Shown here: positions 45,001 to 59,465 of the stretch, one piece after another
Position numbering within the stretch: position 1 is the first letter of the stretch
How the letters are laid out: every line of letters starts with the position of its first letter
Source: Tolypothrix carrinoi HA7290-LM1
Lineage (GTDB): Bacteria > Cyanobacteriota > Cyanobacteriia > Cyanobacteriales > Nostocaceae
Reading direction: 5' to 3'
DNA: 59,465 nucleotides
Assembly (NCBI GenBank): GCA_019358935.1
Contig: JAHHIK010000046.1
Location: 1 to 59,465, forward strand
Position numbers: made by a program

Positions 45001-48000
45001 TGAAGGGGAAGAATATTCCCGTATCTACACCTGTAACAGCGGTGTTGGTGGGGAAAACCCCAGGCTCCGGTCAATCGCCTTACTTGGTATGCTTGGGGCA
45101 AGATAACCGCTGGTATGTAGCGACGACTGGGGATGTCGTGGATTTGTATGCGGAACTACCGCGAGTTGAAGTTGAGGCTGATTTGTTACCACCGCCGGAA
45201 ATGCCTTTAAAACCAGGACAGTCACGTCGGGGTAATGAAGAAACAGCAGCGATCGCTTCTATAATTCCCGATCCGAGCGAGTTTGTGCAATTACCTCCAG
45301 AAGTAGCCGAACAACTTAGCCGCACTGCTGCTGTGCAAGAGCAAATAGAAGCTCATCCCATACATCAAGCCGGCAATCTCCCAGCAATTTTTAAACGCAA
45401 AGCCCGCTGTGTCGAACTCGAAGCCGAAATTCAACTAATGCAGGAACAAGTTGAGCAACAATCCCAACGTCATTGGGAAGAATTTGTCAACTTAATTGAA
45501 ATTTTGCAACACTTTAACGCATTGGTTAACTTAGTCCCAACTCAATTAGGGCAAATCGCCGCCGCTATGCGCGGAGAAAATGAATTGTGGCTGGGTTTGG
45601 CGCTCGCCAGTGGGGAGTTGGATAATTTAGATCCGCACCATTTAGCAGCAGCAGCTGCGGCTTTGGTGACAGAAACTCCGCGTCCAGATAGTAAAGTACA
45701 CTTCGACTTAAGTGATGAAGTAGTAGAAGCACTAGGAAAATTGCGGGGAATTCGCCGCCAAATGTTTCAATTACAACGCCGGTATAGCGTGGCGTTGCCT
45801 ATTTGGTTGGAATTTGAGTTAATTGCCATAATCGAACAATGGGCACTGGGTATGCCGTGGACACAACTGTGCGAACATACCACTTTAGATGAAGGTGATG
45901 TAGTCAGGTTGCTGCGCCGCACTTTGGATTTATTATCCCAGATACCCCACGTCCCCCATCTGCCGGAATCGTTGCGCCGCAATGCTCATCGGGCAATGCA
46001 ATTGATTGACAGGTTCCCGGTTAATGAGGAGGTTGAATAATTTGGGGCATTGGGCATGGGGAATGGGGCAGGGGGGCAGGGGGGCAGGGGGGGCAGGGGG
46101 GCAGGGGGAGAAATATTTCTTCTTTCTTAACGATGCCCATTGCCCAATGCCCATTGCCCAATTCGCAATTTAATAGACTAAAGGTTGCCCACCTTTGAGA
46201 TTACGTAAAGTATTTACACAATATGGGCAGTCGCAACCAAATAAAGCGATCGCCTCATGGCTTTCTTCTTCCGAAAAGTCCAACATGGCAACATTTTTAT
46301 CAGATTGCTGTACTGAACTCACTTTAGGTGGGGGTGTTGTCTGTGAAACCCGCGTACAAACAAAGTTGTTATACCCTGCATGTGGATGACGTACACATGC
46401 TTGACCATCTTTCATACGCAGAACTGGCTGTGACGCATGTGCTGGGTTTACTACCCCAATGATAGACATCATAGATGCAAAAATAGTCGGGCTGGAAAGT
46501 AAAGTCAGTATTAATTTTCTGTTCATAAGTTTTTCGGGAACGTCTTACTGAACGATTAGGTTATCCGATTAACTGTTACAGGTCAAGAGAGTTTTTTCAG
46601 GAAAATAATTAGTTCTACTTTTGATTTTTAGATTTCTAATTTGTAGTAGGCGTTTTAATGCCTGTTTTAAGCACTGAAGTGCTTACTACGAATCAATTCA
46701 ATTTCAGCGAGTAGTTCTGATTCGATGGGTGTGGTTGAGAGAATATCGTGTTTCAAGTCACCCCATTTTTTACTTGATCGCGTTTTATATAAAGCGATAA
46801 TTTCCGGGATGCGTGAAGATACCAATACTCGCACGGGTTGAAGTTGATTTAGAAGTCTGGCATGGCGATATTGAGGAGATTGTTGCAATGCATCATCTAA
46901 TTGTTGAGCGAGTTCTTGGGGATTTACATTCGTTTGGTCGAGTAACAAAACGTAATGTTGCGGCTGCTTGACAGGTACTAAACTTTTAAAGGATGTTCCT
47001 TGTAATGGTAAGGAATCGAGAATTTGACGGACAAATTCAGAATTTAGTTTCTCGCCTACTAAATCGCTGATTTCTTGTGTGCGTCCGAGAAATTGCAAAC
47101 AAGGTGTATTTAAATAGAAATGGGTAACGCTCAGGCGATCGCCTATTCGATAACGATACAATCCTCCTTTCTGAGAAATAATTATCTCATAAATGCCGTC
47201 TTTTTCCAATTCATGCAAACGGTAAATTTTGCCGGTTTCATCCTCAAACTCAAAAAACACCTCATTCAGCATTGGTACGCATCCCCGCGCTTCAATTAAG
47301 GGGATAGTTAGCGGTGCTTCGGTAGCGAGGAGTCCTTTACCCTGTACTAAAACGTTGGGAAACAATAAACGCAAAAATTCCGCACCATCCGCAGCGTTAG
47401 CGCTATCCCAACAAGAGATAAGTTTGAGTTCTTGCCAAAGTTGCGTCCAAGGAATCTCTGTATTGAGAAGCATTTGGTGTCGTTGAGGTGAAAGGCGATC
47501 GCCTATTTCTAATAAAAGTCGTGTACGATTATTTTGAATATAATCGAGGATAACTTTAAGAAAACTCGGACTCCAAATAGAGATAATTTCCAACTGATCT
47601 TCAAGTAAAAGTGTCTGAGAAAGCTTATTTTTAAATTCTTCCGCATCACCAACGCGATTTAATCCGCGAGGTGAAATCAAAAAAGGACTGAGAAACCATC
47701 TTAACCATTTATCTAAATATTCTGAATCATTGTTTAATCCGATTTCATCTGCTTTTTCTCCCAATTGTGGCGAAATGCAAAAGTATATTTTACCTGTTGA
47801 AAAATTTGCCCCATGTACAATTAAATCATGTGCCCAAACGCAGAACATTTGATTAAAAGAACTCAGCAAAGATTTCGTGTAAGGAATTAATTTAGCAGCA
47901 CCGCGACTTCCGGAAGTTTTTTCATAAAAAAGGATTGATTCAGATGTTAGGAAAGGCTTTTTGGTTTCCTTTTGTTGCAAAATCGACTTTTCAATATCGT

Positions 48001-57000: not shown

Positions 57001-59465
57001 TCTGTCTTTCCACATGATTGATAAACTGCATAATGGATTGATCTGCCTTAATCGGGGTTCTCATGTCAAACTTAATTGTTTGGAAAATCTTAGTATCACC
57101 TTTAGCAAAGTAGTTGCCCACCATCTTCGTAAGTGATAGCACAACTGAGTTAAATAACCAACCGAAAATACCTTTGCGTTTTTTCGTAATTAACAAAGTT
57201 TGACCTTCGGCTTTTCCTTGTTCCGTCATACGCAGGGTAAACATGATGTGGAAGTGCAAAAAGTCGGGTCCAACTGTAACTGTACCGGTGCTACCGTACC
57301 AATAACACATGCTGTAGGTGACGGCGTTTTTGTAGAAAGGACGAATCAACTTGATAAAAAACGAATCTTCACCACCGCGTGTAGTATTGCTGAAGGTAAT
57401 TGCATTTTCATTCAGTTCGTCTTTCTCGAAGACAATTTCTAATGGTAGGTTGTGAACTGTATTGAAGTGTTGAGCGTCAATTGCATTAATCATCACCACA
57501 TTGGGATGACAATTTTTGATGAATCGCGAACCTAAAGCGCTGTAACATTCTTCATCTTCCAACTCTGGGACAAAGGGTAACGGTTGGTGCGGAGTTTCCC
57601 CAGTCCAAACCCAAATCATCCCGTATTTCTCAGCTGTGTGCCAAGATTTCAACTTCATCGGCAGCGGTTCTGACAAACAGGGGATATCAACACAAATCCC
57701 ATCAGCATCAAACTTCCAGTTGTGGAAAAAACAGCGCAATTCATTACCCTCAACTTTACCTTCCGCTAAATGAGCACCCATATGCGGACAGTAAGCGTCA
57801 AAGGTAATTACTCTTTTGTCTTGACCTCGGTAAATAACTAGTTCGCGACCGAGAACTGTGACAGCTTTTACCTCACCCTTCCTTAAATTGCGCGAGGGTA
57901 ATACCCAATACCACCCCTCGATAAAGCGCTGGGGATTATTGAAAGTCTTTTTTTGGCTTCTTGCGCTAAAAATCTGCGAGTTGACGTTCATGTTGAGGTT
58001 TTCACTTCTGGTGAAGCAGCTGATATATAATTCTTAATTTAATAGCCCTCAAAATGTTGCGATTGCAGGTTTTGCTTGAGGAGTATTTTTTTCTATCCCC
58101 CATTCTGCTGAAAACTGTTGCTGCTGCTTCACACAAGAATTAGCGAACCACATTCTTCTCCCTGCCGAAGTCAGGTTTTCTTCACAAATCTCTGTCAAGC
58201 AAACGAGTTCGGCGCCTTGGAGATGATCGGGGTTACATTGCTCAAAAAAGCGGATGTGAGGATCTTGCAGTCTTTCTTGAGGAATTCCCCGCAGACAGTC
58301 TCGCAGCACATGGGGATGAGGAAAGCGGACAACTCCCGCTTTTGTGTCATAATAATTGCCAAAGCGATCGCCTGCAAGAAACTCGATCAACGAGGAAATA
58401 TAAACTGGTGTAACTGCATCATATCGCGGATAAAACTCTTGCCAAAAAATCGGCAGAAAACGATAGGTACGATATCCCCCAGAAATGAGCAGCCAATATA
58501 GTCTACCCTGAGCATAATCTCGCCGAAGCTGGTTTACTGAAGTTATCCAACAGCGAGAAAGCGCAGAACTCGACCACCCGCTAGGGTCCATTATCGTGTC
58601 CCCAGAATAGACTACACTTAGTTTTTCCCCTTCAAACTCAGTGTTATACATCAACAGAGTAGAAAAACCTTGCAGCCGATCTGTTTTTTCATCTTTGAGC
58701 AGAATTACCCAGTTTTTCTGACTTAAGTCTGTCTCAAAAACATCTCGCTTTACACCTTCAAAATAAATGCTAAGTAGCGAGTACATAGCTTCCTTATCTT
58801 CTGGTGATAAATCCTCCGTGTGAACCAGTCGGCTTTTCATTGCTTCATCAAAACAAATTTTGTCGTTCCATTATATGAACTGTAATCATTTGTTTGATGT
58901 AATTATAAAGTTCTGTGTCAGAAACTCATCTGTCCTTCTTTCTCAGTCCTCGATCCGCAGTCCCCAGTTTCCAGTCTGTAGTGTTAAAACAGATGTCAGG
59001 CTTTGCAAAAAGGCTGGTGAATCAAGTTTCATGAGGCTTTGATACTCTTTAATGAGGCTTTTATATAGATGAATGAGGCTTTTATACTCTTTAATGAGGC
59101 TTTTATATAGATGAATGAGGCTTTTATACTCTTTAATGAGGCTTTTATATAGATGAATGAGGCTTTTATACTCTTTAATGAGGCTTTTATATAGATGAAT
59201 GAGGCTTTTATATAGATGAATGAGGCTTTTATATAGATGAATGAGGCTTTTATATAGATGAATGAGGCTTTTATATAGATGAACGAGGCTTTTATATAGA
59301 TGAACGAGGCTTTTATATAGATGAACGAGGCTTTTATATACAGGACTTACGCAACTGGCACATTGCGATCGCCAATTAGTAGTAATTTAGTACTAGAAAC
59401 AAGTATTTCTGAAATCAGCCCTTTTTAGAATTGTTGATAGAAATGAATCAAGTAGATTCCGGGAA

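Follow-up and report, generated by a model that had tools for sequence, protein, structure and literature searches.

Ten intact genes on the minus strand of Tolypothrix carrinoi HA7290-LM1, at 46667-58840 in the window (the whole 59,465-nucleotide stretch of contig JAHHIK010000046.1 that was analysed), form one pathway. Judged from their gene content, they belong to the orphan "Rieske-containing" class of CylC homologues set out in the main text of Eusebio et al. 2021 (PMC8406957). The explanation we favour, at a probability a little short of even, is that this pathway works without a carrier protein and would make an oxidatively decorated N-acyl amino-acid lipid, a reading drawn from the gene evidence and from family chemistry.

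Gene layout and co-inheritance

The genes of the locus are arranged as follows.

g1, 58049..58840, minus strand: 263 aa; GNAT-fold putative acyltransferase
g2, 56906..57991, minus strand: 361 aa; Rieske oxygenase, KshA/PrnD/SxtT-like group; PF00355
g3, 55789..56817, minus strand: 342 aa; ferritin-like di-iron protein; Ferritin_2 below cut-off
g4, 54432..55625, minus strand: 397 aa; predicted CylC-family di-iron enzyme, Rieske/PriA branch
g5, 53192..54367, minus strand: 391 aa; Rieske oxygenase, paralogue of g2 (34%)
g6, 52899..53192, minus strand: 97 aa; [2Fe-2S] ferredoxin; PF00111 (Fer2)
g7, 51880..52902, minus strand: ~340 aa; Rieske oxygenase, VanA-type catalytic domain; PF00355 + PF19112
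g8, 50937..51662, minus strand: 241 aa; membrane di-iron fatty-acid hydroxylase / sterol-desaturase family; PF04116
two inserted genes, 49286-50365 and 50418-50852, plus strand: 359 aa and 144 aa
g9, 48253..48897, minus strand: 214 aa; membrane-anchored left-handed beta-helix acyltransferase; PF00132
g10, 46667..48199, minus strand: 510 aa; GH3-family acyl-acid amido synthetase; PF03321, PF23571, PF23572

All ten ORFs of the preliminary description were recovered with their GH3, hexapeptide, FA_hydroxylase, Rieske (three) and Fer2 matches. The two plus-strand genes that interrupt the block went unmentioned there. These inserted genes lie outside the pathway. They have no counterpart in any mapped relative locus, and in a 95% identical locus (L092) g8 adjoins g9 with no insertion. 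Their GC content is 35%, their 25 homologues are all annotated as hypothetical, and the 359-aa protein has a lipoprotein-like N-terminus. In three RNA runs from two studies, assembled contigs of relatives span stretches of most genes in the cluster and none spans 49143-50489; the shares were 0.06-0.11 and contigs of this kind cannot show transcription, so the observation carries no weight here.

The stop codon of g5 overlaps the start of g6, and that of g6 overlaps the GTG start of g7. The g7 ORF was called from 52956; since its homologues are ~340 aa long, GTG 52902 is most likely the start. Promoter and terminator scans stayed at chance level (43 vs 35.4 and 16 vs 10.3, respectively). A domain scan of the 13 locus genes and 38 further window ORFs found neither a carrier protein nor a FAAL or PKS. 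Only 625 bases of contig remain upstream of g1, but the 28 relatives with the full cluster also lack these genes, and no ACP, FAAL or PKS was found between or beside the core genes.

The g4 gene occurs at 60-85% identity in 43 of 300 other genomes of the order, and any CylC-like match in 75 of 301, which agrees with the earlier view that the cluster is common there (15 and 17 of 100 genomes). The number of matching database proteins is likewise close to that given before (1147 at E<=0.001, against 1145 at 1e-40). Loci were fetched from 36 of the 43 carrier genomes, and in 28 of the 36 nine or ten of the ten genes lie within 20 kb. All ten stand side by side in Calothrix sp. PCC 7103 and Dulcicalothrix desertica PCC 7102. 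The description of a conserved, widespread biosynthetic cluster without PKS or NRPS genes holds, and it has no carrier protein either. g4 and g10 (GH3) are found in the identical set of 43 of 300 genomes, even where the genes are scattered; g1 and g3 are present in all 43 carriers (one summary count was set aside because no g1 ORF had been called in locus L097), and g7, g8 and g9 are kept in 5/5 genomes where the cluster is split or scattered. Nine or ten genes also stand together in 6/10 loci from other classes of the phylum. Because kin are not independent, there are fewer independent cases than these counts suggest.

This co-inheritance shows that the ten genes belong to a single pathway. 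The alternative, a loose island of redox genes without a common role, is disfavoured and scarcely credible: gene order does vary, g5 is often missing or moved, and foreign genes enter at the g8/g9 and g6/g7 junctions, but the co-occurrence in 43/43 carriers, the grouping in other phylum classes and the overlapping stop and start codons all speak against it.

The CylC-family protein and its redox partners

Based on its relatives, g4 is a predicted CylC-family di-iron protein and not an AurF-type one. PF28091 (CylC-like) is assigned to it through its homologues and Atlas clusters, being present on 120/120 homologues listed (74-97% identical to g4) and on the two nearest Atlas clusters, and the published group-C primers have their sites at 55363-55382 and 54874-54893, which gives 509 bp where 506-509 bp is expected. 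The gene is single copy in the genome, and a PDB sequence search with g4 returned no match at E<=1. The 3-His/3-Glu ligand set is intact (E97, E131, H134, H242, E246 and H249) within the motifs QExxH and HxxDExxH. The earlier "AurF-like" label therefore gives way to that of a CylC homologue, on the strength of PF28091, QExxH and the primer product. An AurF N-oxygenase identity was rejected, as g4 has Gln at the D135 and E196 positions and scores 17.4 bits against a cut-off of 29.6; both this match and the Ferritin_2 match of g3 (20.4 against 24.7 bits) are below cut-off, as had been claimed. The protein shares the ferritin-like di-iron fold family with the arylamine N-oxygenases AurF and CmlI, but has the CylC-type motif, lacks the fourth carboxylate and carries Gln at the AurF E196 ligand position. 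Apparent 741-748 aa g4 "fusions" in two genomes (G341 and G383) were discarded as overlapping open frames, g3 being a separate ORF.

With the CylC/NocO halogenases (Wang et al. 2025, PMC12101540), g4 shares the six predicted metal ligands and the motif Gln and Asp; its E97, Q130, E131, H134, H242, D245, E246 and H249 correspond to NocO E94, Q128, E129, H132, H279, D282, E283 and H286. It differs in its ~30% identity, its long separate branch, the lack of a cognate ACP or FAAL at the cluster, and Gln216 where those enzymes have the outer-sphere Glu (CylC E283 / NocO E252). This Gln is found in g4, in 120/120 close homologues listed and in 36/36 and 14/14 cluster loci, while the Glu is retained in 26/26 other CylC proteins. 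The CylC family is known to include a Gln subset, and the E252A exchange in NocO abolished chlorination (PMC12101540). In a quick tree of 54 rows, in which the outgroup rows form long branches, all 19 Gln-type rows, including L064 and L066 from PriA contexts, fall on one side of a branch with SH-aLRT 100. For the reaction of g4, we give chlorination and hydroxylation or desaturation about equal weight, each just under half, and N-oxidation a slim chance. In work on CylC-type di-iron halogenases, sll0266 of Synechocystis sp. PCC 6803 is listed solely as screened for expression; according to PMC3516471 it drops by ~3 log2 units in the early phase of iron deprivation.

In g2, C68-H70-C87-H90 and D172-H175-H180 are invariant in 36/36 rows; in g3, E126, E156, H159, E203, E233 and H236 are invariant in 36 rows, a full 4-Glu/2-His set; in g6, C39, C44, C47 and C80 are invariant in 30 rows, and g6 is the likely electron donor; the His boxes of g8, which matches PF04116 at 80.3 bits, are invariant in 30 rows. 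g5 is the most dispensable gene, present in 24/36 loci, with its orthologue missing or in pieces in G089 and G157 and split in G183; its C-terminal 37 aa derive from a dispersed repeat. g3 carries an in-frame repeat insertion close to its N-terminus (repeats 56554-56722). The best solved relatives are SxtDIOX, SxtT and KshA for g2, over its N-terminal half, and NdmA/NdmB, SxtDIOX and DdmC for g7.

The predicted g3 model aligns with aldehyde-deformylating oxygenase (Z 17.0), sMMO (16.6), R2 (16.3), CmlI (16.3) and AurF (15.1), and a Foldseek search with it returned nothing at E<=0.001. Since several di-iron families tie, no function is given to g3 from its fold. The tie with CmlI and AurF could point to N-oxidation, in which g4, g3 and g2/g5 would turn an amine into N-hydroxy, nitro or N-N groups that the acyltransferases then acylate; the AurF label of g4 in databases agrees, as does the widest match of g2 in 839 plasmid records, to a Rieske gene that belongs to a prnABC-type cluster (26.5% over 96%). 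We regard this pathway as rather improbable. The PrnD likeness of g2 was dismissed as nothing special, since g2 is equally KshA-like (27.6% to a KshA-type protein); g4 has the CylC QExxH motif without the fourth carboxylate of AurF, the 2 His/4 Glu set of g3 differs from the 3-His site of the N-oxygenases (PMC12101540), and no arylamine-supply gene recurs nearby.

Acyl-joining genes and the proposed product

g10 scores 103.8 bits against the GH3 Pfam cut-off of 23.6 and matches plant GH3 structures at E 2e-9. All three domains (N, middle and C) are present, and the nucleotide motifs that PMC12493201 gives for GH3 proteins, three in number, are recognisable at 95, 290 and 346. OlsH, a characterised bacterial GH3 enzyme, joins a free fatty acid and ornithine in an ATP-dependent reaction (PMC12493201). 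Like the OlsH/OlsI ornithine-lipid pathway, the cluster combines a three-motif GH3 protein, a second acyltransferase and a fatty-acid-hydroxylase-family enzyme resembling OlsE, but its second acyltransferase is a beta-helix protein and not an alpha/beta-hydrolase, and it includes a GNAT and six further redox proteins. An OlsI-type alpha/beta-hydrolase lies inside the cluster in 1/137 loci. According to a 2026 review, ornithine lipids have yet to be identified in cyanobacteria (PMC12971839), which tells against the product favoured here.

g1, previously listed as unknown, has no Pfam or NCBIfam match and is on modelling grounds a GNAT-fold protein and putative acyltransferase. Its nearest Atlas cluster is GNAT (0.98), and its predicted model (pLDDT 91) matches AAC(2') at E 2.4e-7; numerous GNATs align with it at Z 10-12.6 (LasI 11.7, FeeM 10.6), a tie that does not separate acyl-CoA, acyl-ACP or other donors. 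By co-occurrence across genomes it partners the GH3 gene; a complex prediction of g10 and g1 (residues 1-500 and 1-236) scored 0.00, which has no bearing either way. g9 has a hydrophobic N-terminus and H147 invariant in 21 rows; its profile matches are galactoside and maltose O-acetyltransferases, with the Pls/PosA terminal domain as best, sub-cut-off NCBIfam match.

In the proposed pathway, whose steps all follow family chemistry and are listed in no set order, g10 would adenylate a free fatty acid and form an amide with an amino acid, and g1 may add or relay an acyl group alongside it. g6 would pass electrons to the soluble oxidative enzymes, three of them Rieske oxygenases and two of them di-iron proteins. 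Together with g8, these would introduce oxidations at defined sites in the chain or the head group, g4 attacking an unactivated C-H bond; g9 might acylate a hydroxyl formed in this way.

The amide is suggested by the intact GH3 motifs, the OlsH precedent and a D-aminoacylase-like amidohydrolase found in 22/301 genomes, all 22 within the 43 carriers; among the solved structures closest to this amidohydrolase are N-acyl-D-glutamate deacylase and D-aminoacylase. The lipid is suggested by the fatty-acid-hydroxylase-family core gene, by an Mpo1-like gene (2-hydroxy fatty-acid dioxygenase family; the match covers part of the profile only) beside the cluster in 14/137 loci and fused to the amidohydrolase in 2, and by the fatty-acid desaturases that adjoin sister g1+GH3 modules; moreover, the other CylC contexts checked are all FAAL/ACP/PKS-type or similar. 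Against this product, the nearest solved relatives of the Rieske enzymes act on small heterocycles, steroids and aromatics, not fatty acids, scores far below cut-off show that g10 and g8 are not OlsH and OlsE orthologues (25.7 bits against 620 for NF052613; 46 against 475), and this genome lacks the accessory amidohydrolase, Mpo1-like gene and SDR seen in relatives.

Those Rieske relatives (SxtT/SxtDIOX, NdmA/B, DdmC), the patchy distribution (43/300) and the solved GH3 relatives, all hormone or benzoate ligases, would also fit a small diffusible signal or defence conjugate of an aromatic or short acid, comparable to the jasmonate, auxin and benzoate conjugates of plant GH3 enzymes, with the Rieske enzymes hydroxylating or demethylating a ring. 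We consider this unlikely, given that g8 and g9, both core genes, encode membrane enzymes, and given the lipid-type accessory genes, the retention of genes after scattering and recurrent neighbours that include no conserved exporter or precursor-supply gene. The same retention suggests a housekeeping-like role and so could favour tailoring of an existing membrane component (hopanoid or sterol, carotenoid, quinone, lipid A or glycolipid) with no new aminolipid. The sterol demethylase SdmA is the top NCBIfam match of all three Rieske genes, though at 66-79 of 600 bits and far below cut-off, and an SDR occurs in 12/137 and a GT2 in 3/137 loci. Such tailoring has a low probability, since GH3 and the dedicated amidohydrolase point to amide formation on a free acid and no terpenoid or lipid A gene was found among the recurrent neighbours.

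Place among CylC-homologue clusters

The Rieske-containing class is the most abundant CylC-homologue class in the main text of Eusebio et al. (n=36), so the statement that a literature search had found nothing no longer stands. Within the scope of that text, the cluster shares with the class a single CylC homologue, 2-4 Rieske genes (three here), a sterol-desaturase-family gene, acyltransferases, a ferritin-like gene and no carrier protein, and differs in nothing of kind, the two-gene insertion being particular to this copy; GH3 (0 occurrences) and the GNAT fold go unnamed there, although Figure S4 may show them. g4 falls in the same clade as loci with a PriA and diguanylate-cyclase context, the "PriA-containing" class of the same survey. 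By itself, this copy offers no new architecture. As stated before, no product is assigned: none for the class appeared in the survey, the NocO study or work on other CylC pathways, a literature with few subscription journals, so one may be in print. Added here are the GNAT fold of g1, the co-occurrence of the CylC-like and GH3 genes, the amidohydrolase link and the branch-wide Gln.

More speculatively, and on balance doubtfully, the Gln-type branch may be a carrier-independent di-iron C-H enzyme, either a free-standing halogenase or a non-halogenating sister of all CylC halogenases, which with the GH3/GNAT pair would make an undescribed class of heavily oxidised, possibly chlorinated aminolipids. 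This class would occur in ~1/7 of the order's genomes as well as in other classes of the phylum, and would have a deacylase and alpha-oxidation turnover module of its own. A CylC-like enzyme with no need for a tethered substrate has been called a valuable biocatalyst in the text of Eusebio et al. (PMC8406957). For this commonest and still orphan context of CylC homologues, the search is narrowed to an amide-linked acyl compound.

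Gene content and class of the cluster

Ten minus-strand open reading frames called in the window span 46667 to 58840, bearing out the gene set of the preliminary description with its stated families, and a genome search found every one of them in a single copy. In reading order they are:

g1, minus strand, unknown by domain scan
g2, 56906-57991, minus strand, Rieske
g3, minus strand, ferritin-like
g4, minus strand, 'AurF-like' by domain scan
g5, 53192-54367, minus strand, Rieske
g6, minus strand, ferredoxin
g7, minus strand, Rieske
g8, minus strand, fatty-acid hydroxylase family
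g9, minus strand, hexapeptide acyltransferase
g10, minus strand, GH3

The Rieske and mononuclear-iron motifs of g2, g5 and g7, the His boxes of g8 and the four Cys cluster ligands of g6 are intact, and the metal ligands of g3 (E126/E156/H159/E203/E233/H236) are invariant in 36 rows. Stop and start codons overlap at g5/g6 and at g6/g7. An invariant Cys-His pair directly ahead of the mononuclear-iron motif is common to g2 (C161-H162) and g5 (C163-H164), and g5 additionally has invariant H166 and C168 near its pair.

Two plus-strand hypothetical genes (49286-50852), with no match in any mapped locus, separate g8 from g9. g8 and g9 directly adjoin in one related locus (L092, 95% identical), and other close relatives carry different inserts at this site (pentapeptide, WD40, inactive STAND). 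Short repeats are inserted in frame within g3 (56554-56722), the last 37 codons of g5 are a dispersed repeat (53195-53305) with a 97% match on another contig, C26, and a tandem array with a 21-nt unit (58985-59383) lies upstream of g1 near the contig end. Just downstream of g10 (46170-46526) is a protein of 118 aa that looks secreted and carries Cys motifs; it has one paralogue on contig C133 and was not found in related loci. The lower-GC polysaccharide/O-antigen-type locus at 3617-18916 (ABC transporter, methyltransferase, glycosyltransferases, dTDP-rhamnose genes) is unrelated to the cluster finding.

The 'AurF-like' label of the preliminary description, which is also the NCBI label (AurF) for g4 homologues, gives way to another. 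PF28091, named CylC-like in the Atlas, lies on 120/120 g4 homologues among the matches listed, and the group-C primers of Eusebio et al. (available part of PMC8406957) match g4 at 55363-55382 with 0 mismatches (chance alone would give 0.06 sites when up to 3 mismatches are allowed) and at 54874-54893 with 2, giving a product of 509 bp versus 506-509 bp published. Because of the domain and the primer match, g4 is identified from its sequence as a CylC homologue.

That part of PMC8406957 also describes 'Rieske-containing' clusters (n=36). These combine 2-4 Rieske proteins and a single CylC homologue with a sterol-desaturase protein and acyltransferases, and they have neither a carrier protein nor a product; the authors proposed that they act on fatty-acid intermediates. 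By gene content, the window cluster belongs to this class. The 'PriA-containing' variant of the same authors is present in loci L064-L066, as g1-g4 with a diguanylate cyclase and PriA. A quick tree built from 54 rows places all 19 Rieske/PriA-type g4 proteins together on the same side of one branch (stem 1.68, support 100), in agreement with the separation reported there. The class has been in print since 2021, contrary to the preliminary statement that a literature search found nothing; our searches found no product for it. The available part of a 2026 preprint survey contains neither 'Rieske' nor 'GH3', and that of a 2023 review has a single, unrelated mention of 'Rieske'.

The glutamine branch of CylC homologues

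The accessible text of Wang et al. 2025 (PMC12101540) gives nine essential NocO residues and notes a small subset of homologues with Gln in place of the outer-sphere Glu. We found Gln at this position in g4, in 120/120 close homologues among the matches listed, in 36/36 cluster loci and in 14/14 further loci, and Glu in 26/26 other CylC proteins from 24 loci. Among 24 library representatives of at least 330 aa, 2 have Gln, 18 CylC-type proteins have Glu and 4 are distant. As judged by this residue, the Gln subset is the branch containing g4. Five Glu-type loci are FAAL/ACP/PKS-type, confirmed or partly confirmed by Pfam (40 proteins from 10 loci scanned); neighbours in others are P450/sulfotransferase, PfaD/PKS, glycosyltransferase or desaturase. 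Loci L068 (scanned) and L070 hold a Glu-type homologue in a different cluster that looks carrier-free and encodes FA hydroxylase, PhyH, sulfotransferase, SDR and alpha/beta-hydrolase. NocO E252A keeps iron and loses chlorination, and no E252Q result was found in the accessible text of PMC12101540. g4 may be a halogenase; given its Gln and the loss of chlorination in E252A, this activity therefore stays putative.

Co-inheritance and distribution

The ten genes form one co-inherited pathway. Both g4 (60-85% identity) and g10 (46-68%) occur in 43 of 300 other order genomes, and the two sets are the same 43, counts in which related genomes are not independent samples; any CylC-like match occurs in 75/301. 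g3 is found in 50/300 (all 43, genomes G079, G204 and G297, and four distant matches) and g1 in 51/300 (all 43 and eight more, with a more distant GH3 in seven and a GH3 fragment in G079). Five genomes (G016, G052, G099, G148, G243) have GH3 fragments with no g1 match; in G052 (locus L188), G099 and G016 the GH3 gene exists only as fragments, possibly decayed copies, and the CylC-like gene is absent from the genome. g3 also occurs where the CylC-like gene is missing from the neighbourhood or the genome (loci L155 and L166, where g1 accompanies it; G204, G297).

Loci were fetched for 36 of the 43, with ten genes in 15, nine in 13 and fewer in 8. Where clusters are split, g7, g8 and g9 are kept elsewhere in 5/5 genomes and g5 is missing or broken in 3/5 tested. 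Named carriers include Tolypothrix, Chlorogloeopsis, Calothrix, Rivularia and Okeania. A further 14 genomes that also match ranked as 'same phylum' only; ten of their loci were fetched, with 9-10 genes in six, six genes in three and the last a 3.3-kb contig. The carriers outside the order presumably belong to non-photosynthetic classes.

The GH3/GNAT core and the possible product

The preliminary description left g1 as unknown, which holds for the domain scan, where it has no family; its predicted model, however, has a GNAT fold. g1-type genes accompany GH3 genes outside CylC clusters too. Eight loci (L141, L145, L149, L152, L184, L187, L189, L191) hold a sister module of g1-type GNAT and GH3 (31-35% to g10). 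Its companions vary in combination and comprise a g7-like Rieske protein, a fatty-acid desaturase, an unknown protein of 370-380 aa, a membrane protein of 210 aa and an RnfD/FG-GAP/UnbV protein; Rieske and desaturase occur with other genes in cyanobacteria (L141, L149, L152, L184, L189) and Burkholderia (L191). In a Citrobacter plasmid record (L193:7938-16596), a g1 homologue and GH3 are followed by four radical-SAM genes (B12-binding domain in the one checked), an N-acetyltransferase and a PAP2 phosphatase. No GH3 was found adjoining the Azospirillum homologue (L192).

GH3 motifs are kept in g10. OlsH, the bacterial GH3 that has been characterised, uses ATP and a free fatty acid to form N-acyl-ornithine (available part of PMC12493201), but g10 falls far below the OlsH cut-off. 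An accessory amidohydrolase, nearest to de-N-acetylases and D-aminoacylases, is present in 22/301 genomes, all among the 43 and in 0 of the other 257. It adjoins the cluster in 12/137 loci, a Mpo1-like gene in 14/137 and an SDR in 12/137; in L199 and L203 the amidohydrolase and Mpo1-like genes form a fusion. None of the three was found in the Tolypothrix carrinoi genome. Together, the g1 GNAT/GH3 pairing, the g10 motifs and these three genes suggest an amide-linked, hydroxylated acyl compound with an optional deacylation step.

Against an acyl-lipid product, relatives of the cluster Rieske enzymes act on non-lipid substrates, and the available part of a review (PMC12971839) reports no ornithine lipids in cyanobacteria. 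The product might instead be a small-acid conjugate, which we consider unlikely; that the pathway performs N-oxidation seems improbable, and that the cluster tailors an existing membrane component about equally so.

The window cluster is one of known class and unsolved product. The GH3/GNAT core, the tie of the Gln variant to the Rieske-containing class and the dependent amidohydrolase may be unpublished, although the core could already be in the supplement of PMC8406957. With gene identity, intact catalytic motifs, co-inheritance and class membership established, we tentatively propose, with a little under even confidence in the whole scheme, that g10, with g1, would convert a free fatty acid through acyl-AMP to an N-acyl amino acid, that g2, g3, g4, g5 and g7, supplied with electrons by g6, and the membrane protein g8 would carry out oxidations, and that g9 would perform an O-acylation.
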